This document shows, piece after piece, positions 3 to 57,863 of a stretch of DNA of 64,000 nucleotides (the first letter of the stretch is position 1; each line of letters opens with the position of its first letter). This stretch comes from a virus. The position numbers and the translations under genes were made by a program. The stretch lies in the IMG/VR virus record IMGVR_UViG_3300030114_000522, one strand, 5' to 3'. Below the pieces are notes generated by a model. The model did not search any database. It was given only the letters and a program-made list of their open reading frames with translations, and was not told where the DNA came from.

Positions 3-2597
3 TGAACATACCTTTTCTAATTCATTTTTAAATATAGTATAAATAGTAAGGGTTTCCTGTTCGAAATCAGCATTATATTTATTCTTTGAACCACTATATT
101 TAATACTATTTAATTCTGATAATTGTTTTCTGAAGTCTTGATATATAACTACTACACTATCATATGTATCTTGATTTATTAGGTCATTATATCTCATTAA
201 TAAATTATGTGTATCTTCTTCAACTGTATGTATTTTATTCTTTATATCAAAGTCTACACTTTCAATATATTTGCATATATTATTCATTACACTATCAGTA
301 TCTACAACTGGCATATAAATATTATAATCTTTAGTGAATTTTAATTCATTTTTGTTTTTATTATCTTTCTCTAATAATTCTTTTAGTGAAATTCCAAACT
401 TATGTCTACAAGCTAAATCATTTTTTTCTATGTATTTTTTATATTTTCTTTTTGTATCTGAATATAAATGTATAAAGAAATATGGATGTCTATCTAACAT
501 TATAGATTTTAAAAAGTCTTTTTCTTCACCTGATATTTCTAATTGATTTATATATTTCCTATCTGTCCATATTTTAGGGATACCTTTTACCTCCCTACCT
601 ATTTTAGCTTTATCTATCTGGGCTGATTGTAATTTTGTACACATCTTTAATCTATCAAGAGTAACTTTATATTCTCTACTTCTTTTACCTTTAGTTTCTT
701 CTAGATATTTTAATAAGGCAGTTCCAGTTGTACTCTTATTAGTTATAGCACCGATAATTGAACCAAAAGAGAATAAATCAGATTTATATAAGTCCTCATT
801 AGTAATAACAATCTTTTTAGGGGTGGGTGGTTCGTATACTACTGGATTCTCATTTTTATAAACTGAATTAATTATGATTTCGTTTGAGGTACTAGCTAAT
901 ATATCGAAATCAAAGTCGCTTCCTGCAAAGTTATCTGTCTCATGTCCATGAATATTTAGTATTATTCCACCATAGCAATATTTAAACCATTTTCTTTGTT
1001 CTTCTGTATTTTCTACATTCATAACTACATGTTCACTTCTGTATGTTAATGGGGCTCTCATACAATCAATTTTATTAACATTCCTATCATTCCAATATTG
1101 AGAATAACAACTTCCTTTACTAATTAACCCATGTACTTCTAGTCCACATATAGATTCCATTAGTCCATAGGGGTCGGATACGATAACTTCATAGTTTCCG
1201 TCCAAATTTATAGTACCTAAACATCCTTTATCTATTTTTTTCTTTATCAAATTGTATATTTTTTGCTTTATGTATTTATCATTTAATAATTGATGATTAA
1301 CTATTAATGATTTTATCCACCAATTTGAACTATTTTCTAAATATTTTTTAATTGATGATTGAGTTATATTTGTACCCATTAAGAACAATAATGTATACCA
1401 TATATCATCTGAATTAACTCCTTTAATCCATTTTATAAAACTTTCACATAACTCTGGTATTTTGTCTTTAGGTATATCGGTAACTTGTAAGAACTGATAA
1501 TTCATTCTTAAAACATTACTCAATTCCTTATCAACATATAAAGATACTCCCCATGATAAATCATTTTTTATACAATTTTGTTTGTATTGTTCTAAACTTA
1601 TAAATGAGTTCCATAACTTAAATTGTCCCTCAGTCAATATTACGTCAATTTCTCTTAAATCTACTTGAATAGGTTGTCCATTATCATCTTTATATATTGT
1701 ATTTATTATGTAATTACCATTATTTTTCTCTTTACAAAATTCTTCGGTTTCAAATACATTTAACATCCCTTTAATAAAACTTTCTCTCACGCAAAATTGA
1801 CAAGGTATATAATCTAAGCCTAATTCATTACCCCATATTTCAGCCATTTTAGGAGTTATTAAACCCATACCATCAGACCTATTAAATTCTTTAGTAATAG
1901 TTTTTTGTTCAATTTTATCATCTTCATCATTTGGTGTTTCTGTAACCCAATTCACATCAAAGGTATCACTTATAAAATAATCAGGCACTACACAAAATCT
2001 AGGAGTAGTTACTACTTGTGTCTTAGATTCATATAAACCCTTATAAGCATTAAATTTAGAAGGTGAAAATTTCTTAGTTTTATCTCTTCCATTATCTAAT
2101 ATTTTATCAACACTTTGTAATATATCACTTGAACAAAAAGTAACTGTACTAGAACGCCCCTTTCCTGCCGAAGTAGATATTCTAAAATAAGTTTTATCAT
2201 TAATTATCAATCCATTATTATATAAATATTCATAATGCTTATCATGTTCCATTATTATAGTTATATATTCTGGAATATAGCACATATCTATTATCTTTTG
2301 TTTTTCTTCTTTTAATTTGTTTTTGTTTTCTTCACTATTTTTTTCTTTCTTTATTTTTTCTATATTTATATAAAATTCTTCAAGTACATTTTTATCTAAT
2401 ATTCTATTTTTAATATCACTATTATCTTTATATATGTCTGTCACTACTTTTCTAATAGTTCTTAGCATTTGATTATCTGACAAGGCTATTATTTCTCCAT
2501 TAGATAATGCTTCTTGATAATCAATAGTTATATTATAATCAAATTTTTTCAATCTAGAAGATTTAAATTTCATAGTATATAATTGCCTGTTTTTCAC
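3..2597 (-). CDS. YonO-like single-subunit DNA-dependent RNA polymerase (cellular RdRP-like fold), 3' end outside window
   Basis: Not in ORF track. GTG start at 2597 after AGTGGGTG; translated by hand at several points, all in one frame. N-terminus MKNRQLYTMKFKSSRLKKFDYNI; motifs RSDGMG, MRAPL and FAGSDFDFD (DFDFD at 903-917). Confidence 0.85.
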   Translation of the reverse strand, partial: MKNRQLYTMKFKSSRLKKFDYNITIDYQEALSNGEIIALSDNQMLRTIRKVVTDIYKDNSDIKNRILDKNVLEEFYINIEKIKKEKNSEENKNKLKEEKQKIIDMCYIPEYITIIMEHDKHYEYLYNNGLIINDKTYFRISTSAGKGRSSTVTFCSSDILQSVDKILDNGRDKTKKFSPSKFNAYKGLYESKTQVVTTPRFCVVPDYFISDTFDVNWVTETPNDEDDKIEQKTITKEFNRSDGMGLITPKMAEIWGNELGLDYIPCQFCVRESFIKGMLNVFETEEFCKEKNNGNYIINTIYKDDNGQPIQVDLREIDVILTEGQFKLWNSFISLEQYKQNCIKNDLSWGVSLYVDKELSNVLRMNYQFLQVTDIPKDKIPELCESFIKWIKGVNSDDIWYTLLFLMGTNITQSSIKKYLENSSNWWIKSLIVNHQLLNDKYIKQKIYNLIKKKIDKGCLGTINLDGNYEVIVSDPYGLMESICGLEVHGLISKGSCYSQYWNDRNVNKIDCMRAPLTYRSEHVVMNVENTEEQRKWFKYCYGGIILNIHGHETDNFAGSDFDFDILASTSNEIIINSVYKNENPVVYEPPTPKKIVITNEDLYKSDLFSFGSIIGAITNKSTTGTALLKYLEETKGKRSREYKVTLDRLKMCTKLQSAQIDKAKIGREVKGIPKIWTDRKYINQLEISGEEKDFLKSIMLDRHPYFFIHLYSDTKRKYKKYIEKNDLACRHKFGISLKELLEKDNKNKNELKFTKDYNIYMPVVDTDSVMNNICKYIESVDFDIKNKIHTVEEDTHNLLMRYNDLINQDTYDSVVVIYQDFRKQLSELNSIKYSGSKNKYNADFEQETLTIYTIFKNELEKVCS

Positions 2598-2635: not shown

Positions 2636-3802
2636 TTACATTGCTTGTTTAAATTCTAAATATGTATTAAGTTCTTCCTTGCTATGAAATTGTAATCTTT
2701 TCATTTTAGCTTCTTCTCTTTTATGTATTATAATATCTGTTGCTTCTTGTTCGGTTTTAACTGTTTTTCTAAATTTTTCACCTAATAATGTAATGCTAAT
2801 ATTATAACTTCCATTTTTATAGCTATAACCTTTTTCTACTTTCTTAGATAAACCATTTCCAACTGAATCGGTAATAATCAAATTATTCATTCTATCATCT
2901 AATTCATCATGGTTTAATCTTGCTACAAACCAATTTTTATATTTTTTATCAATCAAACCAAATAAATATCTATGTAATTTAACTGTTTTTCTGCAACCAT
3001 TTTCAATTATAAATCCATGAATAGAAATACTTTTATTTGAAACATCTTCAGCTACATGCCATATTCCATTTTCTATTAGTGATTTGCTTTCTAAACTTAT
3101 TTTAAAAGTTTTATTATTTACATCATAAACATTATAATATGTACCGTCCTCAGATATTTCAAATCTATTATTTGAACATATCTTATCATCTCTAGTTTTA
3201 TTTAGTTGTCTTTCTATATTAGAAATAACTTCTTTTATTCTTAATTCTAATATATTATCTAACATATAATATAAATTTTCATTGTGTCTGAATCCATAAT
3301 GTTTTTGAATAATTAATAAATCAATGAGAGCTTCATCTTTGTCTTTATATTTTGTATAGACACTAATGTCATTTATTTTTATATTACCAACCCAACTATT
3401 TCTTCTTTTTAACAGTCCTACTATTCCACTATATTTATTACCACTCCCAACCTTCTTTTCTTTTGAATTATCTAATGAATCAGATATAGATAACTTCTCT
3501 TTTCTATTATCCCACCTACGTCCACCTAAATGATTAACGAATATATTTGTTTCTGTTACTCCCATAACTATTCTATGTAATTTATCTCCTTTGCGGTTTT
3601 GGATGTATCCATAACTAATTGTCCTCCAAGTGTAAGATTTTATATATTCTATAGTTTTATCATCACCATCGAACCAAAATTCATCTCCTCTTTGAGTTAT
3701 TCCAATCCAATAAGTTCCATCTTCTGATAATTTAAATATATTTTTAGATGGGCACATTTTATTTTCCATATTTATTTCTAATACCATATTATTATCTATC
3801 AT
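2636..3802 (-). CDS. Tandem degenerate HNH/AP2-like endonuclease-domain protein
   Basis: Two units: LHRIVMG...VNHLGGRRWDNRKEKL and LHRYLFG...RLNHDELDDRMNNL, each followed by an AP2-like segment. Confidence 0.65.
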   Translation of the reverse strand: MIDNNMVLEINMENKMCPSKNIFKLSEDGTYWIGITQRGDEFWFDGDDKTIEYIKSYTWRTISYGYIQNRKGDKLHRIVMGVTETNIFVNHLGGRRWDNRKEKLSISDSLDNSKEKKVGSGNKYSGIVGLLKRRNSWVGNIKINDISVYTKYKDKDEALIDLLIIQKHYGFRHNENLYYMLDNILELRIKEVISNIERQLNKTRDDKICSNNRFEISEDGTYYNVYDVNNKTFKISLESKSLIENGIWHVAEDVSNKSISIHGFIIENGCRKTVKLHRYLFGLIDKKYKNWFVARLNHDELDDRMNNLIITDSVGNGLSKKVEKGYSYKNGSYNISITLLGEKFRKTVKTEQEATDIIIHKREEAKMKRLQFHSKEELNTYLEFKQAM

Positions 3803-5766: not shown

Positions 5767-6690
5767 TTATGCCATTCCATACATTTTATAATTATTTCTA
5801 TGATGTTGTTCTATACCCTCATTTAAATATTCCTGTATTTGTATACATTTATTTTCAATATCCTCAATATCTGATTTAATTATATCAATATTATTACAAT
5901 CATACTCAGAAGTCGTCATATCATTAATTATTTTTTCAATACTATCTTTATTTTTAATAAGCGATTCTATTTTCTTATTTCTTATTATATTTCCTAAATA
6001 AACATCCAATCTCATAAGTTTTCCATCAACTAAAGCTAAACTATCTGTATTAAATTTTTTAAACATGCAATCTAATTTATCTAAATTAATATATACTTCT
6101 TCTAGATAATATTCATTTATATAATACGAACCCCATAAATATCCAACTGAACTAGCTATTTTCCCAATATCCTCAAGTATTCCATATGTAGTTCTATTTC
6201 TTTTTAAATAAACAATACAATCAATTTTATAATTTTTAAATTCATATTTGTAATATTTATTATAATCTAATGCATATTTTGATACTTTTACTTCATTTTT
6301 TACTTTATTAATGTGTGGTACTGGACTATATTTAATAGGTTCTTTATGCTGAAATTTTACTATCTTATTTAATATTAAATTTATATCATCTATTGAAAAC
6401 CATTCATTTTGATGGTTATATTCTTTTAACTCTTTATGTAAAAATTGTTCTAATTCTATACTATGAGTATATTCAATAAAACATTCAACTTTTAAATTTG
6501 GAGGAGTTCCACAAAATTTAAAACTACTCTTTATATCACTCAATCTTCTTGTTAAATCATTAGTTTTTCCTATTTTTAATTTATTATTTTCTAAATTTCT
6601 TATTAAATATACTCCTTCGATTTTCAATTTATCTAAGTTATCATAATGTATTTTATATTCTATTTCTTTCATTTTATCATATCCTTTCAT
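5767..6690 (-). CDS. T5orf172/MUG113 (GIY-YIG-like) domain protein
   Basis: GVYLI...LKIGKTNDLTRRL...LEQFLH...EWF signature. Confidence 0.75.
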   Translation of the reverse strand: MKGYDKMKEIEYKIHYDNLDKLKIEGVYLIRNLENNKLKIGKTNDLTRRLSDIKSSFKFCGTPPNLKVECFIEYTHSIELEQFLHKELKEYNHQNEWFSIDDINLILNKIVKFQHKEPIKYSPVPHINKVKNEVKVSKYALDYNKYYKYEFKNYKIDCIVYLKRNRTTYGILEDIGKIASSVGYLWGSYYINEYYLEEVYINLDKLDCMFKKFNTDSLALVDGKLMRLDVYLGNIIRNKKIESLIKNKDSIEKIINDMTTSEYDCNNIDIIKSDIEDIENKCIQIQEYLNEGIEQHHRNNYKMYGMA

Positions 6691-6773
6691 ATTTGGTCAT
6701 TTAATCATTTTATGTAGCTAATACATATTATTATCTCTTGTTTACTTAATATTCCTAGCTAAAATACTATTTT

Positions 6774-6836
6774 GTATGTAAAAATACACTATTAATTTAG
6801 GTATACCCTTAAATTTTCGTATGTATAAACACACTA
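6774..6836. repeat. Two 18-bp direct repeats GTATGTA(A/T)AAA(T/C)ACACTA
   Basis: Copies at 6774-6791 and 6819-6836, 16/18 identical, just 3' of the 6919..7914 gene. Confidence 0.6.
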
Positions 6837-6918
6837 CAATGGAGGTGTAATAAGAGAGAATAAATATATAATAAGAGATAATAAGAAATCTCCTGTCCGT
6901 CTAAAAGCCGACCAGAAT

Positions 6919-7914
6919 TTATTTTCCTTTTTTCTTATTTAGTTTGTTTTGGTATTTTAATTTGTATTCTTCTATATTGGTATTTAATAATTCTAGTTCT
7001 TCTACTTCTTTTACTGTTATAGTTTTATTATTTAATTTCTTAGTTAAAAATCCTTTTCTGCCATATATAGATTTCATGTTAATTCTATTATCATCTAATA
7101 TTATATATCCTTTGCCCTCATAGTAATTATGTTGTTGCTTTAATCCTTCTTTTAATTCTAGTTCTATAAAGTCTCCTTTGACTATATTTGTTATGATGTA
7201 TATATTGGCACAATCAGTTATTGTTTTGTTCATATCATTTTCAAGATATTTTTTACCTAAGTTTTTATATTCTATCATTCCTAAATTTTTAAGTTTAGTT
7301 ATATATTCTACTATGTGACTTTCACTTGTATATGTATATTCTGCTATATTTTTATAACTTGGATATGCAACCTGAGCTTTTCCTCCATCTTTTTGTATAT
7401 TTCCACCATTAATTTTCTTTCTTTTATTTGATTTACATTTTAAGTATAAATATACTTTTAATAAGTTTATATTCTCTTTATTGCTTGTACTACTTGATAT
7501 TATTTTATTCAATTCACTTTGTTCTAAGGAAACATATTTATCAATATCAATTAATTTTACAGTGTTAAATGTTATCAAATCATTATGCTTTGATTTATTT
7601 ATATTATCTTTAGTATTTATATATTTTAATTTGCATAAGTCGTTTAATATGTTTTTAAATTCAGTTTTAGTTCTATCATTATTATAATATCCACATCTGT
7701 TTATTAATTTGCTAATGGATATATCACATTCCACTGTATAATTTGTCCTGATATATAACTGATATAGTATTAATATTACTTTACTGTCCTTTATATTTGT
7801 TAAAATACTATTATCTTTTACACATTTATTCTTTTCTATGAACTCATCTTCTATAGTTTCATAGAATAATATAGTTGGTATTTTAGCAAATAATTTTTTA
7901 TTATATTCTTCCAA
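6919..7914 (-). CDS. HTH-containing replication-initiator-like protein (paralog of 22937..23848)
   Basis: AYPSYKNIAEYTYTSESHIVEYITKLKNLGMI wHTH motif typical of phage initiators. Confidence 0.55.
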   Translation of the reverse strand: MEEYNKKLFAKIPTILFYETIEDEFIEKNKCVKDNSILTNIKDSKVILILYQLYIRTNYTVECDISISKLINRCGYYNNDRTKTEFKNILNDLCKLKYINTKDNINKSKHNDLITFNTVKLIDIDKYVSLEQSELNKIISSSTSNKENINLLKVYLYLKCKSNKRKKINGGNIQKDGGKAQVAYPSYKNIAEYTYTSESHIVEYITKLKNLGMIEYKNLGKKYLENDMNKTITDCANIYIITNIVKGDFIELELKEGLKQQHNYYEGKGYIILDDNRINMKSIYGRKGFLTKKLNNKTITVKEVEELELLNTNIEEYKLKYQNKLNKKKGK

Positions 7915-8188
7915 TTCTCTTCCCTTCTTCCCTATTTTAATTCTTAGTCACATACTACCACATATAAAAATATAAGTCAACTATTACTCTAATTTATTAT
8001 ATAGTTTCTAAAATACCACATTTGTAAAAAACATTTCTATCCATCACAATAAAAAAAGAAGTAATATTACACTACTTCTTGCATATAATATTATGTTAGG
8101 GTTAAATGCCATTATAAGGCTCAAATTAGCGTTCTAGTTTTAAGACGACAACTTATACCTTTTATGTTCTATCTCGTCTAATTAGGGC

Positions 8189-9103
8189 TTACTTTTGGGT
8201 TTCTTTAAGTAAATTTGATACAAAGCTATTATCAGCTTCAATATCAATAGCTATTTCTTCTTTAGAATCACTTTTATCCCAACCAAGTAATTTTTCTTCT
8301 ACTAATTTCATATGTTTTTCATCCTTTGATTCAGGTCTACCTTCAAAATTATTAAAGGTGTTTTGTTTACTCTTTTTACTATCATTTTGTAGTCGAATAA
8401 TACTTTCATTTTTTTTCTCTATATAAAATTTAATCCCTACTGCTTTAGTTCCTAATTTAAGAACTTCATAATCTACATTTAAATCAGTTTTTAAGTTAAT
8501 TTCATCTATAGACGGAATCAATATTCTACTAGTAATATTATTAAATCTATCATAAGATTTTTGATTCAATTTTAATATTTTTTTAAATTCTTCTAGTGTA
8601 TAAGCTACTTCATGTTTGAATGAACTACTTTTTGATAGTTGATATATCCTTATAGAATATTTAGAAGTTAAATCTAGAATATTTGCTAGTTTAAAACTAG
8701 TAAATAAATCTTCCAGTTGAACTAAATATGGTTCTAATTCCTCGTTAATTTTCATCATTACAGAACCTTCTTTTTTCTTATGTTTTGCATAAGTAACTAT
8801 ATTAAACATTTCCCAATCACCATTAGGTTGTTTTATTTCAATAATTTTCTTCATTAAACTCCTACAAGCTTTTGGTAAATCTCGATATAATGGCTCTACA
8901 CTTATATTCATTAAATCAGCTATGTCACGTATTCTAAATGTAGTCCTATATGTTTTTATGTCACCTTTTTTAATTGTAGATATCAATATCATTAACAATT
9001 TTTGTTCTAATGATGTCATCTCATAACTAGCATGAACAAACATATTATCCTGCACAACTAAATTATTATCTTTTAAATTTAATTCCAATTGTTCATATCC
9101 CAC
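8189..9103 (-). CDS. repB: Plasmid replication initiator, Rep_3 (RepB) family
   Basis: VVQDN...MTSLEQKLL, LTSKYSIRIYQL, RILIPSIDEIN motifs; iterons directly upstream. Confidence 0.9.
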   Translation of the reverse strand: MGYEQLELNLKDNNLVVQDNMFVHASYEMTSLEQKLLMILISTIKKGDIKTYRTTFRIRDIADLMNISVEPLYRDLPKACRSLMKKIIEIKQPNGDWEMFNIVTYAKHKKKEGSVMMKINEELEPYLVQLEDLFTSFKLANILDLTSKYSIRIYQLSKSSSFKHEVAYTLEEFKKILKLNQKSYDRFNNITSRILIPSIDEINLKTDLNVDYEVLKLGTKAVGIKFYIEKKNESIIRLQNDSKKSKQNTFNNFEGRPESKDEKHMKLVEEKLLGWDKSDSKEEIAIDIEADNSFVSNLLKETQK

Positions 9104-9122
9104 ACTTAAATCCTCCTAAAGT

Positions 9123-9380
9123 TACTATCAATTTGTAGTTTAATACTATCAATATGTAGTCTACACACCTACATATCTTTAGTCAACATACTATCAATTT
9201 GTAGTCATTATATATCATTCTGTAGTTCATTACTATCAATTTGTAGTTTAAAGGCTTTCTAATCCTTTGATTTTACTACTATAAGGCACTCTCTTAATAG
9301 TATTAAATAGAGATTTAAAATAAATAAAACACATACTATCATTTTGTAGTTCACTAATAATTTCACTATCATTTTGTAGT
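9123..9380. repeat. Iteron array / plasmid origin, 17-bp TACTATCAATTTGTAGT
   Basis: Copies at 9123, 9144, 9189, 9210, 9231 (about 21-bp period) and 9334, 9364, with an AT-rich stretch between the groups. Confidence 0.88.
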
Positions 9381-9529
9381 TGATTGTTTTAGTCCACTTA
9401 TTCGCTTTATACAGACTAAAAGTTTGGAGATGACAACTATTACTCTTTTAGTTCTATCTCAATTCATACGTCCTGTCTGATATCATACAATAGTTTCTAA
9501 TGCGACAAGATTATTTTTATGTTGAGTTG

Positions 9530-10258
9530 TTACTTCTTGAAGTGCAAGAATTTGCTAAATAGTGATTTAGACTTTTCAAGTTCAAGTTCCTTTTTAAGAG
9601 TTTCTATTTCTTCTTGTTTTTTATCAATCTTATTTCTCATTGCAGTAGTTTCTTTGGAATACAGTCTTTCTAATTCCTTATCCTTATTTTGATTACTCTG
9701 TTCTAAGGACTGCATTTTATCTGTCAGTATCTCTATATTATTAAGCATTATATCTTTAGTTTGATTCATAGCATCTAAGGATACTTGTGCTATTTTCATA
9801 GCTTCTTCTTTAAAAGAACCAGTAATATCATTAGTTAGTTGAGTCTTAATTTGATTAACTATTTTGTCAGTTTCTTTTTTTATTTCTATAGTTACATTTT
9901 TAGCAATTACTTGTGAGTCTATCTTAGTTAAATTTTCTTTAATTATTCCAGTTTCTCTATCTATTAACCCATGAGAATTATTCTTAAAATAATTTACAAC
10001 TTCATCATAAGGCATTTCATCTTTTATTAAATCTACAGCTAGTTCTAACTTTTCAAAATCATTTTGAGAAATCATATCGGTTTTTTCAAAAAAATTATTA
10101 TCAGCACTGGCTTTATTTAATTTAAAAATCAAATGGTTTACTTTAGTGGTGCTTATATTAAGTTTTTTAGCTACTTCTTCAATAGTGTAATTTATAATTT
10201 CAGACGTTTCTACTTCCTGAAAGTTTGTATCTATAATCTTGTTAGTATTAGTAGTCAT
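9530..10258 (-). CDS. tubY: TubY-like partition regulator (MerR-like HTH, coiled coil, amphipathic C-tail)
   Basis: YTIEEVAKKLNIS HTH, C-terminal coiled coil, KSLFSKFLHFKK tail; adjacent to tubRZ. Confidence 0.65.
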   Translation of the reverse strand: MTTNTNKIIDTNFQEVETSEIINYTIEEVAKKLNISTTKVNHLIFKLNKASADNNFFEKTDMISQNDFEKLELAVDLIKDEMPYDEVVNYFKNNSHGLIDRETGIIKENLTKIDSQVIAKNVTIEIKKETDKIVNQIKTQLTNDITGSFKEEAMKIAQVSLDAMNQTKDIMLNNIEILTDKMQSLEQSNQNKDKELERLYSKETTAMRNKIDKKQEEIETLKKELELEKSKSLFSKFLHFKK

Positions 10259-10490
10259 AAATTATATTACCTCCAAATAATTTATTATTTATATAATTAT
10301 AGCATAAAATTAATATAATGCAAATATAATATTAAAGTAATGCTATCTTAATATTATATTAAGGTTTATTTAATACTATAATAACGTTAAAATAATATGA
10401 ACTAAATATTAGGATAATATAATACAAATATTATTAAAACATTTCATTGACATTCATTAAATATAATGATATATTAATAGTAATTTGCAA
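10259..10490. promoter_or_regulatory. Divergent tubY/tubRZ promoter region, probable centromere (tubC/tubS)
   Basis: Extremely AT-rich with loose TAATAT(A/T)AT repeats and a TTGACA -35 at 10447; position matches type III partition loci. Confidence 0.4.
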
Positions 10491-10502
10491 GGAGGGATAT
10501 AT

Positions 10503-10808
10503 GTGAACTTAACTAAAAATGATTATTATATAATGGATACACTATATGATAAAGGATGTTTTTCTAAAATGTGTTCATTTACTTTACAAAAGTTAGCTGA
10601 TTCAACAAGCTTATCTATATATAAAATAAGAGATTCTATGAGAATGTTTATAAATCTTGATTTAGTTTGCGAGGGTGCTAGGGATGTAAGAGCAAAGACT
10701 TATTTTTTATCAGATAAGGGAATAGCCTTAGTGAAAGAAAATAAAGTAGTACCTAAAGAACTTAAAGACAGATTCAGTAAAATGCAAAATGAAAAGGGGG
10801 ATAATTAG
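10503..10808 (+). CDS. tubR: TubR-like winged-helix centromere-binding protein (start revised to GTG 10503)
   Basis: Small wHTH-like ORF after GGAGGG RBS, coupled to tubZ. Confidence 0.65.
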   Translation: MNLTKNDYYIMDTLYDKGCFSKMCSFTLQKLADSTSLSIYKIRDSMRMFINLDLVCEGARDVRAKTYFLSDKGIALVKENKVVPKELKDRFSKMQNEKGDN

Positions 10809-11896
10809 TGATGCTAAAGGACGATTTTTGTGCAGTAGGTATCGGTCAAGGTGGAAGCAAGCTAGCTTATGGATTTTATAAAAATAAATATAGGGGATTT
10901 TTTATTAATACTAGTTATGATGATTTATCACAATTAAAAATAGATAATCACGATTTTATATATCAGCCACCAGCTTCCAAAGGTTGTGCAAAGCAAAGAA
11001 AAGTGGCACAACAGTATGCAAAAGATTATTATGAAGTAATGATTAAAAAGCTATTAGATGCTCATACAACTTGTAAAGTTTATATCGTACACTATACATT
11101 GGGAGGAGGAACAGGAGGAGGACTATCTAATATATTTGTAGCTCTATTAAGAAAGAAGTTAATAGAATTAGGAAGAAAAGATATAATTATAATAGCAGTT
11201 GTAGCAAAACCAAAACACTATGAATCATGGCAACTACAAAATAATTCACAAGAAAGTTTAGATGAATTGTATGCTATGGCTGATAAGGGAATTATAAATC
11301 AATATTATGTTATAAATAATGATTCTAGAGAAAGTTTAGATGAGATAAACGAAGAACATGTAATTTTATTTGATAGATGGATAGAAGGAGAGACAGCTAA
11401 TAATCAAAGCAATGCTGACGAATCTGAAAGAATGGATTTATTTAAATATAAAGGTCATGCGATGATGTTTGAATTTGATGGAAATAGTGATGATAAGTTT
11501 GAGAAGAATTTAAAGAAAGCTTATGATAATTCAATATATTGCAAACCATTAAAGAATCCTAAAGCTATGGGACTTGCACTTAATGTTGGAATTAAAGAAG
11601 AAAAGGCTATTCCAATTATAGAAAATATTATAGGAGTATTTCCTAATGACCATGTAACTCCTACACAAGTAAGTAATATGATTATGATAGCTGGACTCAA
11701 CGAAAATAAAGCTATAAAAAATAGTATAATAAAAATAGCTAACGCAAAAGCAGAGAAAATTAATCAAGAAGAATCAGTTGAAGAAGAAATTGTAAGTATA
11801 TCAAATATTAAAAATAAGACTGATATAAAGGAAACTGATATAGATAAAGATATGGAAACTATGAGTATAAAAGATATATGGAGTATGTTTAAATAA
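10808..11896 (+). CDS. tubZ: TubZ tubulin/FtsZ-family partition GTPase
   Basis: GIGQGG and GGGTGGG tubulin signature; NADESE T7-loop-like motif. Confidence 0.88.
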   Translation: MMLKDDFCAVGIGQGGSKLAYGFYKNKYRGFFINTSYDDLSQLKIDNHDFIYQPPASKGCAKQRKVAQQYAKDYYEVMIKKLLDAHTTCKVYIVHYTLGGGTGGGLSNIFVALLRKKLIELGRKDIIIIAVVAKPKHYESWQLQNNSQESLDELYAMADKGIINQYYVINNDSRESLDEINEEHVILFDRWIEGETANNQSNADESERMDLFKYKGHAMMFEFDGNSDDKFEKNLKKAYDNSIYCKPLKNPKAMGLALNVGIKEEKAIPIIENIIGVFPNDHVTPTQVSNMIMIAGLNENKAIKNSIIKIANAKAEKINQEESVEEEIVSISNIKNKTDIKETDIDKDMETMSIKDIWSMFK

Positions 11897-12051
11897 TAAA
11901 ATCTCAAGCACTTGCTTTATTTAATTAAATAGTAGGTGCTATTTTTTATGTTGTTTTTTAGTGGAAAACTATTAAAAACTACCAAAAAGAAGGCTAAAAT
12001 GTATAATTTTTATACAAAATAGCCTTAAAATGATTAAAAATTAACTTATTG

Positions 12052-12492
12052 TTATTTGTTTGTAATTGCAGATATATTAATCCAATTAGAATCAACTGTT
12101 TTATCTATGGTATTAATTAGAGTTTGTACCATGTTAAAATCCTTAACTCTTAATGATTTAGATTTCATTAATGAATATATCACATGAGCATCATTTTTAA
12201 AATTTTTATTCTTATATTCAAACTTATCTACATGCAATTCTAGATATTTTCTAATTGCTAATATTCTGTCTCTTGTTAATTCTTTATTCTGAAGTCTATC
12301 ATGGAATAATTTTTGAGTATAACAGTAGGATATTTCAACTTTAGCAGACCTTATCTTGTGTTTATTAATATCCTCAATAACCATCTCAGCAGTTATCATA
12401 GTTTTAGGAATTAAACTTAATCTCCAAAATCCTAAACGTGTGAATAATTTTATTAATAATGGTAATGCTAATATTACAATGATAGTTTTCAT
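12052..12492 (-). CDS. hypothetical protein with N-terminal membrane anchor
   Basis: GAAAGGA RBS; hydrophobic N-terminus. Confidence 0.7.
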   Translation of the reverse strand: MKTIIVILALPLLIKLFTRLGFWRLSLIPKTMITAEMVIEDINKHKIRSAKVEISYCYTQKLFHDRLQNKELTRDRILAIRKYLELHVDKFEYKNKNFKNDAHVIYSLMKSKSLRVKDFNMVQTLINTIDKTVDSNWINISAITNK

Positions 12493-12784
12493 ATGTAATC
12501 CATCCTTTCAATCTCGTAAATTGTTTTTTTGGAATTACATTAATGATTAACTAGAATCAATCAACATAACTATTTTCTCCTTTCTTTGTTTTGCATATTG
12601 CTTAGTCTTGTGTTTTGTATAATGGGTTTTCCTAAGTAATATGTATCAAATGTAGGATTTAATATTGTGTTGAGTATTGGATATAGAGTAGGGGAATATA
12701 TTTTCTCCCTACAATCCAATATAATATAAGTATTGGTATACCTACATTTTAAAAGGTCAGTATAATGAGGAGTATGCAGTAATA

Positions 12785-15071: not shown

Positions 15072-15260
15072 GATTGTAAAATATACCCCGTTACTAAAAA
15101 CTTATAAGAAGTTATAAATTTTATAATTTCCATGTTTTATTCCTTATTCATAGTGTTCTTTTTCATATTATTGCTAATACTAATCAAGTGGTCAAAACAC
15201 TCCAAAGGCTTAAATTCCCCAATAACGATTGGGTACATATCAATAATTGCTTTTAAGATG
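15072..15260 (-). ncRNA. TnpB omega RNA (right-end scaffold plus flank-derived guide)
   Basis: GTACCCAATCGTTATTGGGGAATTTAAGCCTTTGGAGTG...CACTATGAATAAGGAA...TAACGG downstream of tnpB, typical IS607 right end. Confidence 0.7.
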
Positions 15261-16437
15261 CTAATATCATTGATTGACCATATTTCATTATATTTATACT
15301 TGCGTTATAATCTCTGTCAATTATACAACCACATTCAAGACAAACATATTCTCTATCAGATAATTTTAAATCTTTTTTAATACTTCCACATTCTGAACAT
15401 GTTTTACTTGATGGATACCATCTATCTACATCTATTACCTTTATATTATTCCACAAACTTTTATATACAATTTGTCTTCTGAATTCATATAAACATTGTT
15501 CTTGAACAGCTTTAGATAAATGTTTGTTCTTCATCATTCCACTAATATTTAAATCTTCAATTGCAATAAACATTGGTTCTCTGTTTATTATTTCAGTTGT
15601 AGTTTGATGAATATAATTACTTCTTATATTTGTTAATTTATGATTTAGTTTTAAGATTCTTTTTTCTAATTTGATAATATTATTAGTCTTTTTATAAATC
15701 TTTCCAATTCTGTTATCTTCATATTTTCTACTTACTTTACGTTGTAATCTTTTCTTAGTTTTCTTTAATTTCTTAACTCTTTTGGTTTTATTAATGTTTT
15801 TATAAGTATTCCCATCAGAACAAATAGCTAAATCTTTAATACCAACATCAATACCTATTCCTTTATTAGTAGGTAATTCATAATTATCTCTAATTTCTAT
15901 TCCAATACTAATAAACCAATTAATACCATCAAAACTTACTCTAGGATTTATATACTTTATATCTTGTCCAAAAGGAATTCTATTCTTTTCAGCTAATTTA
16001 ACCCAATTTAATTTTCTTTTATTTTGTTTCTTACTATCTGTTAGTCCTTCAAATTTAACATGTGTGCCATTAAACTTAATCTTAATATTATCTTGATAGA
16101 ACTTTGGTTTATCATGTTTTCTACTTTTAAATTTAGGATATTTAGCTTGACCTTTAAAAAATCTCTTAAAAGATAAACAACAATCTTTAATTGCTTGTTT
16201 TGTTACATTATTACTAATATTATTTAACCAATTATATTCTTCTATTTTCTTTAATTGTGTAAATTCTTTTCTTAAATCATTATCAGATATAAATTTACCA
16301 TAGTTTTTATAATTTTCTTGTTCTCTAGCCAATGCCCAATTGTAAGCAAATCTTTTAGCACCTGCAAATTGAAACATTTTAGTATTTTGTTTATTATTGG
16401 GTATTAACATTACTTTTATTCCCTTTATCATCTTCAA
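15253..16437 (-). CDS. tnpB: TnpB RNA-guided endonuclease
   Basis: RuvC D (GIDVG), E (IEDL), D (DRDYNA) and zinc finger CSEC/CLEC intact. Confidence 0.95.
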   Translation of the reverse strand: MKMIKGIKVMLIPNNKQNTKMFQFAGAKRFAYNWALAREQENYKNYGKFISDNDLRKEFTQLKKIEEYNWLNNISNNVTKQAIKDCCLSFKRFFKGQAKYPKFKSRKHDKPKFYQDNIKIKFNGTHVKFEGLTDSKKQNKRKLNWVKLAEKNRIPFGQDIKYINPRVSFDGINWFISIGIEIRDNYELPTNKGIGIDVGIKDLAICSDGNTYKNINKTKRVKKLKKTKKRLQRKVSRKYEDNRIGKIYKKTNNIIKLEKRILKLNHKLTNIRSNYIHQTTTEIINREPMFIAIEDLNISGMMKNKHLSKAVQEQCLYEFRRQIVYKSLWNNIKVIDVDRWYPSSKTCSECGSIKKDLKLSDREYVCLECGCIIDRDYNASINIMKYGQSMILAS

Positions 16438-17050
16438 TCACCTCCATTTCAATTAATTCACTTATCATTTTTCTAGTTATATTTGCTATTTTCCCTTGTA
16501 GCCTATAACTGAATACAGTAATTATTTGTATTAAATCTTCAACTAATTCTTCTTGTTGTGTTTTTTCTGTACTGTCTAGTATTTCTATTTCACATCCATT
16601 AAGATTAGCCATATATTCAACTAACTCAAATCCAAATCTTAATAACCTATCTTTATATAATATAACAATCTTTTCTACCTCTTTGTTATTTATTTTCTTT
16701 AGTAAATCTCTAATACCTTTTTTCTTATAGTTCATTCCACTTCCTATATCTTGAATTATCTCATAAGGTTTATTTAAAGAATCCAAATATTTTTTCATGT
16801 TTTCAATTTGTCTTTGTAAATCATCTTTTTGTTTATTAGAGAAAACTCTACAATATCCTATAATTATTTTTTCTTTAACATTATCATCTTTAATATTTAA
16901 TACTTGCTTTAGTTGGTCGTGTGAATAATATCTATATCCATTTGCTCCAGTATTACTTGGAATTAATTTACCACTTTTATCCCAGTTCCTTAAAGTTTGA
17001 GGAGTTCTTCCTATTAACTTTGAAAATTCATGTATACTATAATATTTCAT
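16394..17050 (-). CDS. tnpA: IS607 TnpA serine recombinase (catalytic Ser apparently changed to Phe)
   Basis: MerR HTH plus resolvase domain; GYCRVFSN instead of YxRVSS; DRLLRFG. Confidence 0.9.
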   Translation of the reverse strand: MKYYSIHEFSKLIGRTPQTLRNWDKSGKLIPSNTGANGYRYYSHDQLKQVLNIKDDNVKEKIIIGYCRVFSNKQKDDLQRQIENMKKYLDSLNKPYEIIQDIGSGMNYKKKGIRDLLKKINNKEVEKIVILYKDRLLRFGFELVEYMANLNGCEIEILDSTEKTQQEELVEDLIQIITVFSYRLQGKIANITRKMISELIEMEVIEDDKGNKSNVNTQ

Positions 17051-30184: not shown

Positions 30185-30282
30185 AAACAGAGTAAAACGG
30201 AGTATATTAAAGATAACTATTACTTTAATTGATTATATAGTTAAATTTGCCTGTTTTAAAGTTGTTAGTAGTTTGATATACT
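30185..30282 (+). promoter_or_regulatory. Conserved atypical promoter element, copy B
   Basis: Same upstream block; TTGCCT-24-TATACT. Confidence 0.65.
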
Positions 30283-35360: not shown

Positions 35361-35560
35361 GGAACTGGAGAAATCCAGTTTTTTATTACTTAGATATAAG
35401 TTATCAAATACAACATAATGAGTTAAGATAAAAAGTCTATTTTATTTGGAATTTTAAAGAAAAATATTTTAGTATTATTTTAATTTGTTATTGACTTTAA
35501 TTGAAAACAATGATAATATAGTAAATAAGAAGTACATAACGAATTAAAAAAATATGAGGA

Positions 35561-36646: not shown

Positions 36647-36907
36647 ACCATTCAAAGACTAGCAAAAGAAAAAATATATTGCTAGTCTTTCTTTACATCT
36701 ATAAAAACCACAACAAACGTATCAAACGACCTTGTAATCAATTCTATATCTAAACTAATGCAATTCTACCTATAACATAACAAAGCCTTAAATAGCCTAT
36801 ACAAGCATTAAACGTGCTTATAATAAATACAATCTATCAGCACAGGATAAACAATATATAATAAAACTGAATAACTAATTAAATTAAAAATAAATGAAAT
36901 GCTAAGA

Positions 36908-37006
36908 GAAATGGAGTAAACGAGAGACAATTAAAGCTAAGTATTATTTTAATACGTTATATAGTTATATTTGAGAGTATACAAGTATTTTATAATTTGG
37001 TATTAT
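36908..37006 (+). promoter_or_regulatory. Conserved atypical promoter element, copy D
   Basis: Same upstream block; TTGAGA-24-TATTAT. Confidence 0.65.
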
Positions 37007-37076: not shown

Positions 37077-37568
37077 ATGTCAAATTATGATAACTTAATT
37101 AATAAGGTAAATGAAATTAAGGAGTTCAAAGAATTTAAAAATAAATACATGTTATTAAAAAATAAAATAGCAGAAATTGAAGCTATAGAAGAAGAATGTG
37201 GAAAAGAAATTTTAAAAAATAATATTTTTAATATAAATGAAGAAGGTTATAAATTAAGATTAAAAAGAAATCCTAATTTAGATAAAAGAATATTAGAATC
37301 TAATGAATCTTATCTTATGAATAAGGAAGATTTAGAAAAATATTTAAAATTACTACATGAAGCAAGAACAGAAAAAGGTATTAAAGCGAAAGATTGGGAA
37401 AATTCATCTACATTTGTATTATTTGAAGAAATGAAAAAATATGAACATGGATTAGTGAATATAACAATTGAATTAGCACCAATAGAGATAAAAGAAAAAA
37501 TAGTTCAATTATTTAATAATTATAAATATAGAGATAAAGCTATAGAAACAATGATTAATGTAAAATAA
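37077..37568 (+). CDS. hypothetical protein
   Basis: AAGGAG RBS. Confidence 0.75.
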   Translation: MSNYDNLINKVNEIKEFKEFKNKYMLLKNKIAEIEAIEEECGKEILKNNIFNINEEGYKLRLKRNPNLDKRILESNESYLMNKEDLEKYLKLLHEARTEKGIKAKDWENSSTFVLFEEMKKYEHGLVNITIELAPIEIKEKIVQLFNNYKYRDKAIETMINVK

Positions 37569-37574
37569 CAATAA

Positions 37575-37631
37575 GTAAGTTTGATAAGGAACGTGAGAGT
37601 CGCCGAAACTGGTGTAATGCCAGTCACTTAC
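37575..37631 (+). ncRNA. Type I hammerhead ribozyme (U3-A8 core variant)
   Basis: Stem I GUAAGU/ACUUAC, core UUGAUAA, imperfect stem II, GAAA, stem III CUGGUG/UGCCAG, GUC cleavage triplet ending at 37625. Confidence 0.75.
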
Positions 37632-37792
37632 GAAATAAAAAATCACCTCAAGACATTCAAGAAAAGCGTAAATGAAATCTAGCGCAACGCTAGAAATTAA
37701 ATTAAAAAAATATATTAAAGAAATAGATGAAAGTTATTGACAGTGTAGGAGTAGAAGAGTAAAATAATAATTAGATAAGGAGTTGAAAAGTT

Positions 37793-37987
37793 ATGGCTAG
37801 AAAAAAATTTATATGTAATGAAATTACAGTACAACTAAGAACTGATTATGAATTATTTATGACAACAGAAAACCATAAATATACTTATCAACTAGCAAAT
37901 ATTTATAATGATAGCACTGTAGAAGTGAATGGAACTACATATGATAATGATAAATTTCATGAAATATTTACTAGAAATATAGTTTAA
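37793..37987 (+). CDS. hypothetical protein
   Basis: Promoter and RBS. Confidence 0.65.
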   Translation: MARKKFICNEITVQLRTDYELFMTTENHKYTYQLANIYNDSTVEVNGTTYDNDKFHEIFTRNIV

Positions 37988-41981: not shown

Positions 41982-42481
41982 ATAATGATAAAAACATTTT
42001 AAGGATTATATAGAAATATAGTCCTTTTATCATATCCAATACTACAAAACAGACAAGTCACAAGCTACACTAAACCACCTATAATATAATTAAGGTACAA
42101 TTGCATTACTCTATATAAACACGCTTAGAACGTCTGATAGTGAGTTTAAATAAATTCTAACTGTTGGTAAACTTTTTAAATTATTTTCATAATATGCTTG
42201 ATTATTATTCTAATATATTATATACTTTATGTAAGGTAAGAAATAGAAACACTTCAAGGACATTTAAGTTAGACGGAATATTGTTAGTGCAAAGCTAACG
42301 CACATAGTTTAGACAGTTAATACATAGAAAAAATAATATATTAAAAAAGGAGTTGATAGAAATGACTGCATTAATATTAATTGTAGCAGGAATACTTGCA
42401 TTAGTAACAATTATTGAAATGATTAAATGTGGTATCGGAATTAAAAAAGCAATTGGAGAATTATAAAATAAAAAATTAAAT

Positions 42482-56780: not shown

Positions 56781-57863
56781 ATGTCTGATATATTTTATGG
56801 AATTTATGAAGACGATAGAAAACACAATCTAATAGATAAATATAAAAAGAATAAGATTACCTTTATAAATGAAAGAGAAGATTTTGCTGAAGCTACTAAA
56901 GATAATTATTTAAAACTATTTAAGAGCTATGTATATTATTTAGAAAATATTAAAAAGAAAGATTTATATGATTTTGATAAAATGGAAATAGTAGAATTAT
57001 TAAAATCAGCACCAACTACAAGTACAAAAACAAAAGCTAGTTTATTCTCAGCTATAAATGGTTATGAAGAATGGGCAATAAAAAGAGGGTTTAGACTTAC
57101 AAGTAATCCATGTGATGGGATAAATTTAAAAGAAACATTAGTAGTTAATAAACAAGCAGTAATACACAATTATTATAAATTACCTGATTTTTGGGAAATA
57201 ATTAAAAAGCTAGAGACCAAAAATGACATAAATAATCTTATAATATTAATACTATTAAGATATGGCATAACTATGAAACTTCAACCAGGTTTAAAATGGG
57301 AAGATATAAATAGAGAAGAAAAGAAACTATATCTATTTGATACAGATAGAGTTCTACTAACTATATTAGATATAGATGATACTTTTATAGAATATATAGA
57401 CAAGACTTATAATTTTAATAACTATTCTTATAAAATGGCAACTAGACCAAAGCTAACAGGGGGAAGAACTGAATGGCAAAAAGAAGTTAACTATCAACTT
57501 GGAGAGTATGTATTAAAGACTACTAATATGCAAGCTGATGATAGCAATATGGTATCAGATTCAGTTATATATAATAGATATAATGCAGTATTCAATAATA
57601 ATAAAATGGATGATGGAGAAGTAATTAAAAGGTTATCTATTTTAGATTTATATAGAAGTAGAAAATTTGATGAACTTTATAAGATTTATAATTTAAAAGG
57701 AGAACTAAGCGTAAAAGATATAAAGGTAGTTAATGATAAAATTAATTTAAATTCTAAACCTTCAATTAATACAGTATTAAGAAAAGATTTTGAATTAATA
57801 TCTGGAATTGAAATAGTAATCGATAGGAACGGTGAAAAAAGAAAATCTAAAAATAAACAATAA
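56781..57863 (+). CDS. MrpR/YopR(SroF)-like master repressor with degenerate tyrosine-recombinase fold
   Basis: Core-binding-like N-terminus ending SNPC; LLRYGI..LKWEDIN and LYRSRKF lack the R/HxxR/H/Y set. Confidence 0.6.
   Translation: MSDIFYGIYEDDRKHNLIDKYKKNKITFINEREDFAEATKDNYLKLFKSYVYYLENIKKKDLYDFDKMEIVELLKSAPTTSTKTKASLFSAINGYEEWAIKRGFRLTSNPCDGINLKETLVVNKQAVIHNYYKLPDFWEIIKKLETKNDINNLIILILLRYGITMKLQPGLKWEDINREEKKLYLFDTDRVLLTILDIDDTFIEYIDKTYNFNNYSYKMATRPKLTGGRTEWQKEVNYQLGEYVLKTTNMQADDSNMVSDSVIYNRYNAVFNNNKMDDGEVIKRLSILDLYRSRKFDELYKIYNLKGELSVKDIKVVNDKINLNSKPSINTVLRKDFELISGIEIVIDRNGEKRKSKNKQ

Follow-up and report, generated by a model that had tools for sequence, protein, structure and literature searches.

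A probable type I hammerhead ribozyme with a U3-A8 core, set in a cassette with an RNA module at a gene end of a phage genome

Hammerhead ribozymes lying between phage genes were described by Perreault et al. in 2011 (PMC3088659), who reported cleavage in vitro and natural covariation between C3-G8 and U3-A8. The naturally occurring U3-A8 form was active in vitro, and cleavage during transcription was seen for tandem intergenic hammerheads from C. scindens and others. Many natural hammerheads had no recognised tertiary contact (Perreault et al., PMC3088659). The U3-A8 core also exists in Penelope-like elements (PMC4209133), and in most type I motifs of eukaryotes helix III is short and cleavage takes place in dimers (PMC13725137). 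What self-cleaving ribozymes are for in phages is still an open question (PMC6765202). A U3-A8 hammerhead between phage genes is thus not new, both features having been published (PMC3088659, PMC4209133). Here we analysed such a motif, together with the RNA that follows it, in a viral sequence of 64,000 nt (IMGVR_UViG_3300030114_000522), hereafter called the window.

The motif occupies positions 37575-37631 on the + strand. A first-pass annotation had proposed a type I hammerhead there, and the sequence, the coordinates and the position of every element were as it had claimed. Stem I has 6 bp (5' strand 37575-37580, 3' strand 37626-37631) and opens into the core UUGAUAA (37581-37587), in which U3, G5 and A8 are 37581, 37583 and 37586, the 3:8 pair being 37581:37586. 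Stem II (37588-37604) is made of 2+2 bp, with an AA bulge at 37590-37591 and a UGAGAGU loop at 37594-37600, and is followed by GAAA (37605-37608). Stem III spans 37609-37623 plus the A37608:U37624 pair. GUC occupies 37623-37625, C37625 being C17, and the predicted cut falls between C37625 and A37626. Stem I is open and stems II and III are closed by loops, as in a type I three-way junction. The required core nucleotides (U4, G5, A6, A9, G12, A13, A14, A15.1-U16.1 and H17) are all present, and positions 3 and 8 form a Watson-Crick pair (U3-A8). The R10.1-Y11.1 closure of stem II is G-C in 5/5 cassettes (see below), the next pair being G-C or A-U. We hold it very probable that 37575-37631 is a type I hammerhead with its cut after C37625.

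The motif resembles the phage hammerheads of Perreault et al. (PMC3088659) in its open stem I, its GAAA and GUC, its place between small phage genes and the variability of the neighbouring genes, and processing of long transcripts was proposed for them. It differs from them by a stem I of 6 bp, against 5 bp in the canonical relatives identified here, an AA-bulged 4-bp stem II, the absence of a consistent loop II pseudoknot and of U1.7, its single rather than tandem copy, and a conserved module on its 3' side. With the minimal U3-A8 hammerheads of Penelope-like elements (PMC4209133), it shares the type I topology and the same core covariation. Those motifs, however, belong to eukaryotic retroelements, whereas the window is phage DNA and its stem III is long enough for a monomer.

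We then looked at how specific the motif was. We searched the two strands of the window (128 kb) with a descriptor for type I hammerheads, which required CUGAnGA or UUGAnAA as the core and at least 5, 2 and 4 bp in stems I, II and III. It matched only 37575-37631, and none of 60 blockwise dinucleotide shuffles contained a site, whichever of the three stringencies was used. The stability of the whole fold was unremarkable (z = -0.95). The search with hammerhead models that the first-pass annotation had suggested gave a divided answer. Rfam, at the gathering threshold and at E ≤ 10, reported no hammerhead at 37575-37631. At the gathering score, however, it also missed the canonical phage type I hammerheads in the contigs L096, L107 and L182, so its silence says little; it excludes filing the motif under the Rfam model, not under the ribozyme class. 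In contrast, a covariance model (R1) built from 16 canonical phage type I hammerheads, none of them from the lineage of the window, ranked the motif first in the window, albeit weakly (14.9 bits, E 0.051), and the same model found the orthologous cassettes at E 6e-7 to 2e-3.

Copies identical to that of the window were present in L005-L010. Pattern-based and protein-guided searches yielded four further cassettes, in L011 (also in L060 and L113), L090, L182 (12111-12173) and L184 (3624-3685), all sharing the 5' UAA and stem I, with stem II nearly unchanged. The core reads UUGAUAA in the window and L011, CUGAAUGA in L090, with one extra A after A6 (rare; 5767-5774), CUGAAGA in L182 and CCGAUGA in L184, where U4 is a C (also rare; 3633-3639). 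The five orthologues offer a natural set of differing cores on a common scaffold. In an alignment of the five (A5; 16 pairs, that is, 80 pair cells), 80/80 cells held standard pairs, a count drawn from only five mutually related sequences and not to be read as a probability; slid controls paired in only 24-49%. Pair 3:8 is C-G in L090, L182 and L184 and U-A in the window and L011, which bears out the compensatory U3-A8 core announced by the first-pass annotation. That annotation had also taken the double change as a sign of selection. The compensation stands, but the cassettes are related sequences, so the swap was probably a single inherited event. Four cassettes have G-C and one has A-U as the second pair of stem II, and one pair of stem III is A-U in three and G-C in two. 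G-U pairs are included among the covarying pairs, as in RNA-type covariation. Stem III varies in length with its pairing kept, while G5, A6, A9, GAAA and GUC are invariant in 5/5.

Stem II had been called imperfect. It is indeed bulged, yet it is a conserved 4-bp helix with one compensatory change; with two pairs on either side of the AA bulge, a 7-nt loop and covariation, it is therefore not degenerate. Its UGAGAGU loop matches the loop of canonical relatives. An alternative register, pairing AC with GU around a 1x2 loop, was rejected as it is broken by a G-to-U change in L182. Stem III of the window follows that of L184 nearly letter for letter and its core equals that of L011, so that the cassette looks mosaic. 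Searching contigs with the motif returned the L011-type relative plus one short variant with 5 differences, and no convincing cassette member was found in the GTDB genomes searched. Exact patterns (stem III of the window; UAA-core-loop; module) gave mostly chance matches in coding DNA, and neither ribozyme nor module was matched in the related loci L180, L181, L183, L185, L186 and L193-L195. Taken together, we are highly confident that 37575-37631 is a true member of the hammerhead class, by descent and by structure.

Many other phage type I hammerheads were found, with a 5-bp stem I and strong covariation. In L107 they are strung serially between small genes, 10 within 6.7 kb (5975-12698), and serial copies also lie between small genes in L096 (1064-2215) and L093; at the gathering score, Rfam reported none of those in L107 or L096. 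The L092-L107 family shares with the window a 5' UAA that is often the upstream stop, the G10.1-C11.1 pair, a UGAGAGU or UGAGAUU loop and a variable stem III. It departs from the window in that its core is C3-G8, its stem I has 5 bp and a different sequence, and the GCAAH module is missing. The L095/L099/L101 branch has the same AA bulge after 2 bp of stem II but otherwise differs in sequence. In an unrelated phage, L076, two type I hammerheads at 2840-2905 and 1168-1233 (-) share stem I, one being U3-A8 and the other C3-G8, which makes an independent case of 3:8 covariation.

In 14 of 31 distinct examples, several of which are kin, stem I is directly abutted by the stop codon of a frame that is open for at least 50 codons. 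In the lineage of the window, the gene before the ribozyme actually stops at the abutting UAA in L011, in L090 and at both ribozymes of L182. In the window itself, it lies at 37572-37574 as the second in-frame stop of the upstream ORF, and stem I starts at the 7th base past the stop codon of that ORF (37077-37568). Where the UAA is the upstream stop, as it very often is, the 5' part of the ribozyme would be covered by a terminating ribosome. In the literature searched, we found no description of an upstream stop codon abutting stem I. Incidentally, we noticed that the gene upstream of the ribozyme in L011 (10197-10541) is apparently split over two frames, a 54-aa ORF being followed by a 60-codon open frame that ends at the cassette UAA.

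The window is AT-rich, with long runs of small, co-oriented genes. It encodes Rep3, a tubulin/TubZ-like GTPase, FtsK, an integrase, an MrpR-like protein (56781-57863), a PemK/MazF-family protein, Bro-N/ANT and an IS607-type TnpB with a RAGATH-18 RNA. The latter RNA (15140-15208, - strand) lies downstream of TnpB and a MerR/resolvase gene (ORFs 15253-16437 and 16394-17050, - strand), a locus matching the kind of IS607-type element described in PMC11061315. Among annotated sequences, the tubulin matches that of Clostridium phage c-st best, with an identity of 27.5%. We infer that the window derives from a large clostridial-type plasmid-phage, with a distant relation only. Its DNA was found in peat metagenomes, and BLAST against annotated phages and plasmids gave only short chance matches. 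A family of 32-nt intergenic repeats (30216-30247, 35471-35502, 36940-36971 and 42201-42232) lies near promoter-like sites, and these repeats are possibly operators.

The upstream ORF (37077-37568, +) encodes 163 aa without a Pfam family, and the gene is carried on contigs of up to 198 kb. The predicted cut would make the 3' end of its mRNA. Two homologues of the ORF were found (70% and 57% identity); in L090 and L091 the gene has a plain hairpin directly 3' and no ribozyme, and in L090 a cassette lies upstream of the homologue instead of behind it. The earlier proposal that the cut sets the 3' end of the upstream mRNA is plausible: homologues of the gene that lack the ribozyme have a plain hairpin behind them. 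Further upstream, after a 361-aa gene, a hairpin flanked by A and U runs (36656-36692) is likely a bidirectional intrinsic terminator, which would part the transcript of the 163-aa gene from the genes before it. On the other side, the downstream ORF (37793-37987, +; 64 aa) has only a sub-threshold DUF7638 match, and a search with it returned no homologue. A predicted sigma-A-type consensus promoter at 37737-37765 (+; 11/12) would serve this next gene, which would therefore not need the cut product. The genes flanking the cassette differ in every relative on both sides. This fits a movable gene-boundary element, in which the ribozyme would be one way to finish an mRNA.

After an A-rich linker, about 55 nt form a separate conserved element. 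Its single-stranded part (37640-37677, +) is A-rich, with two UYAAG-type repeats and a GAC/GCG block, and is followed by a hairpin at 37678-37694 (+). The first-pass annotation had located this hairpin correctly, but read it as 7 bp with a CAA triloop. In an alignment of seven module copies (A3; profile model R2), the innermost pair is G-U or G-A in 4/7, so the stem has 6 bp, closed by a GCAAH pentaloop. Two pairs change on both sides and another alternates between C-G and U-G, which favours a hairpin in + strand RNA. Rfam, at the gathering threshold and at E ≤ 10, had no match to the module. The module stands behind the ribozyme in the window, L011, L090 and L182, and is missing in L184 and behind the other L182 ribozyme. 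Ribozyme-free copies exist in the window (42246-42304, +), L011 (7632-7692) and L090 (10707-10766), that of the window being picked up (E 0.0008) with a profile built without it. In the whole records G001 and G002, there are just two module copies each. In the window, the ribozyme-free copy precedes a hydrophobic 34-aa ORF (42362-42466, +) resembling a small membrane peptide.

A short RNA ending at the hairpin, as first proposed, gains no support from the sequence. The hairpin at 37678-37694 is followed by A-rich sequence on the + strand, where there is no U-tract 3' of the stem, and it looks like a terminator on the - strand only; moreover, the module also sits in promoter-proximal leaders. 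The distance from hairpin to next start codon varies from about 50 to 125 nt (49 nt in L011), and the module is therefore tied to the RNA 5' end, not to the translation start. Indeed, all three ribozyme-free copies are preceded by promoter-like sites, scoring 9, 10 and 11 of 12, whose -10 ends lie 59-62 nt before the hairpin; the 9/12 site is that of the window, where the -10 ends at 42226 and the predicted start falls near 42233. Sites of at least 10/12 at that distance exist at only ~1.4% of intergenic positions, and none of the four ribozyme copies has a promoter-like site at the equivalent distance. Counted from the assumed +1, the hairpin starts after 53-56 nt in the promoter copies (n=3, predicted), and counted from the predicted cut, after 50-55 nt in the ribozyme copies (n=4). 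Thus, the distance is kept in 7/7, although the first ~15 nt differ between ribozyme and promoter copies. L011 has a 10-mer common to its promoter copy and to the ribozyme core and start of stem II, in those two places only, and the promoter copy there may have arisen through ribozyme loss. Two things go beyond the first-pass annotation: the AA-bulged lineage with its set of differing cores, and an uncatalogued module apparently started by either a promoter or the ribozyme.

Whether the motif cleaves well is a separate matter. RNAfold placed a shifted hairpin ~2.4 kcal/mol below the active stem II of the window motif, and the G10.1-C11.1 pair had a probability of 0.12 in the window; the other bulged cassettes gave 0-0.11, the unbulged L182 paralogue 0.99. 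Such a weak stem II suggests slow cleavage. Fast hammerheads are described as having a tertiary contact formed by U1.7, a U1.7-A Hoogsteen pair (PMC11875169), and position 1.7 of the window motif is a G, so this contact is absent. Taking the U of the 5' UAA for it was wrong, since U1.7 lies on the 3' strand (PMC11875169). A pseudoknot between loop II and the 3' tail was also discarded; it has only 3-5 bp in a shifting register, is absent in L184, and its pairing UCA is kept in ribozyme-free copies too. The conservation of loop II suggests some other contact with stem I. The core is non-standard in 4/5 cassettes (U3-A8 twice, the extra A after A6, U4C), which could reflect relaxed selection. 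On the other hand, natural hammerheads can be active with a stem II of 1-2 bp (PMC3088659), and some slow natural hammerheads still function in vivo (PMC13725137). We consider it likely that the window motif cleaves usefully in vivo, though probably slowly.

The reading that we favour, with reasonable though not strong confidence, is that of a genuine, probably slow type I hammerhead in a portable cassette, whose cut would expose a putative leader module, set at a constant distance from the new 5' end. The cassette would sit at gene ends within the small-gene region of a large clostridial-type plasmid-phage. On RNA reading through from the 163-aa gene, stems I-III would fold once the ribosome clears the stop codon, and the RNA would then, by homology with known hammerheads, cut itself after C37625. 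The 5' product would be the upstream mRNA. Its new end, a 2',3'-cyclic phosphate preceded by the hairpins of stems II and III, would do the same job as the plain 3' hairpin of the same gene in relatives. The 3' product would start with a 5'-OH at A37626 and carry the ~55-nt module at the distance from the 5' end seen in the promoter copies. There, the module would most likely act as a 5'-end-proximal, protein-bound leader, stabilising what follows or blocking nucleases. Alternatively, the 3' product could itself be a small RNA; it may rather be a leader-capped mRNA. As the next gene has a strong promoter of its own, the released piece may matter for the sake of the module.

Two known systems offer partial parallels. 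In lambdoid phages, nut sites consist of boxA plus a boxB pentaloop hairpin. The likeness lies in a promoter-proximal single-stranded motif followed by a short GNRA-like pentaloop hairpin, and concerns layout only; antitermination would not need a fixed RNA 5' end. The glmS ribozyme of Gram-positive bacteria likewise produces a 5'-OH downstream RNA by self-cleavage, and in B. subtilis this RNA is degraded by RNase J1 (PMC8346122). RNase J1, which a 5'-OH end attracts in Firmicutes, could attack the 3' product in the same way, and the module may protect or mark it. Yet glmS has another fold, depends on a ligand and lies in a 5' UTR, whereas the window motif implies no ligand and is followed by the module. 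A bolder version of our reading, which we put forward only tentatively, makes the hammerhead a promoter substitute. Its purpose would be to provide the 5' end for ~70-nt phage RNA modules of a new class, with UYAAG repeats and the GCAAH hairpin, which would need a fixed 5' length to function, be it as small RNA or as protein-bound leader. The same RNA would be made via promoter or via self-cleavage of the transcript of the upstream gene, with the bulged stem II and the variant cores tuning its release.

Other explanations were weighed against the favoured one. An active ribozyme might do nothing but split or end mRNAs, the module being an independent leader or terminator that travels along by recombination, at a spacing that is coincidental. 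Intergenic phage hammerheads without the module are indeed common, L184 and the second L182 ribozyme among them, the terminator-like face of the module hairpin on the minus strand would suit this idea, and the 10-mer of L011 hints at derivation by deletion, which could explain the spacing there. However, a chance spacing fits poorly with a distance conserved in all seven copies despite divergent first ~15 nt, and the U-G/C-G variation points to a hairpin on the + strand; we hold this explanation to be rather unlikely, while still giving it some weight.

We also considered that an active ancestor has decayed into a hammerhead too slow to matter, kept as a structured 3' hairpin. The weak, misfolding stem II, the missing U1.7 and the non-standard cores in 4/5 cassettes would all agree with this, as would the low activity that Perreault et al. 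(PMC3088659) found for an insertion after A6, as in L090. But decay would rarely restore pair 3:8 by a double change or compensate stem II, G5, A6, A9, GAAA and GUC would hardly have stayed invariant in 5/5, and the AA bulge recurs at the same place in a separate family of other sequence (L095, L099, L101); short natural stems II, moreover, can be active. Such decay therefore seems improbable to us. Finally, a chance look-alike, a DNA-level element or a hidden antisense ORF could be imagined from the Rfam blank, the whole-fold z-score and a 45-codon minus-strand ORF overlapping the motif. As seen above, Rfam misses canonical relatives as well, the shuffles gave no match and the covariation, including G-U pairs, is of RNA type, while the minus-strand frame is closed by stops in relatives. 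These results largely refute this explanation, to which we give very little credence.

Taken alone, the ribozyme is one more example, with good within-lineage covariation, of a kind known since 2011. What the locus adds is two natural comparisons: within one genome, the module comes after a promoter as well as after a ribozyme, and among relatives, one and the same upstream gene is followed by a ribozyme or by a plain hairpin. Through both, the question of what the cut is for becomes testable with a few reporter constructs.
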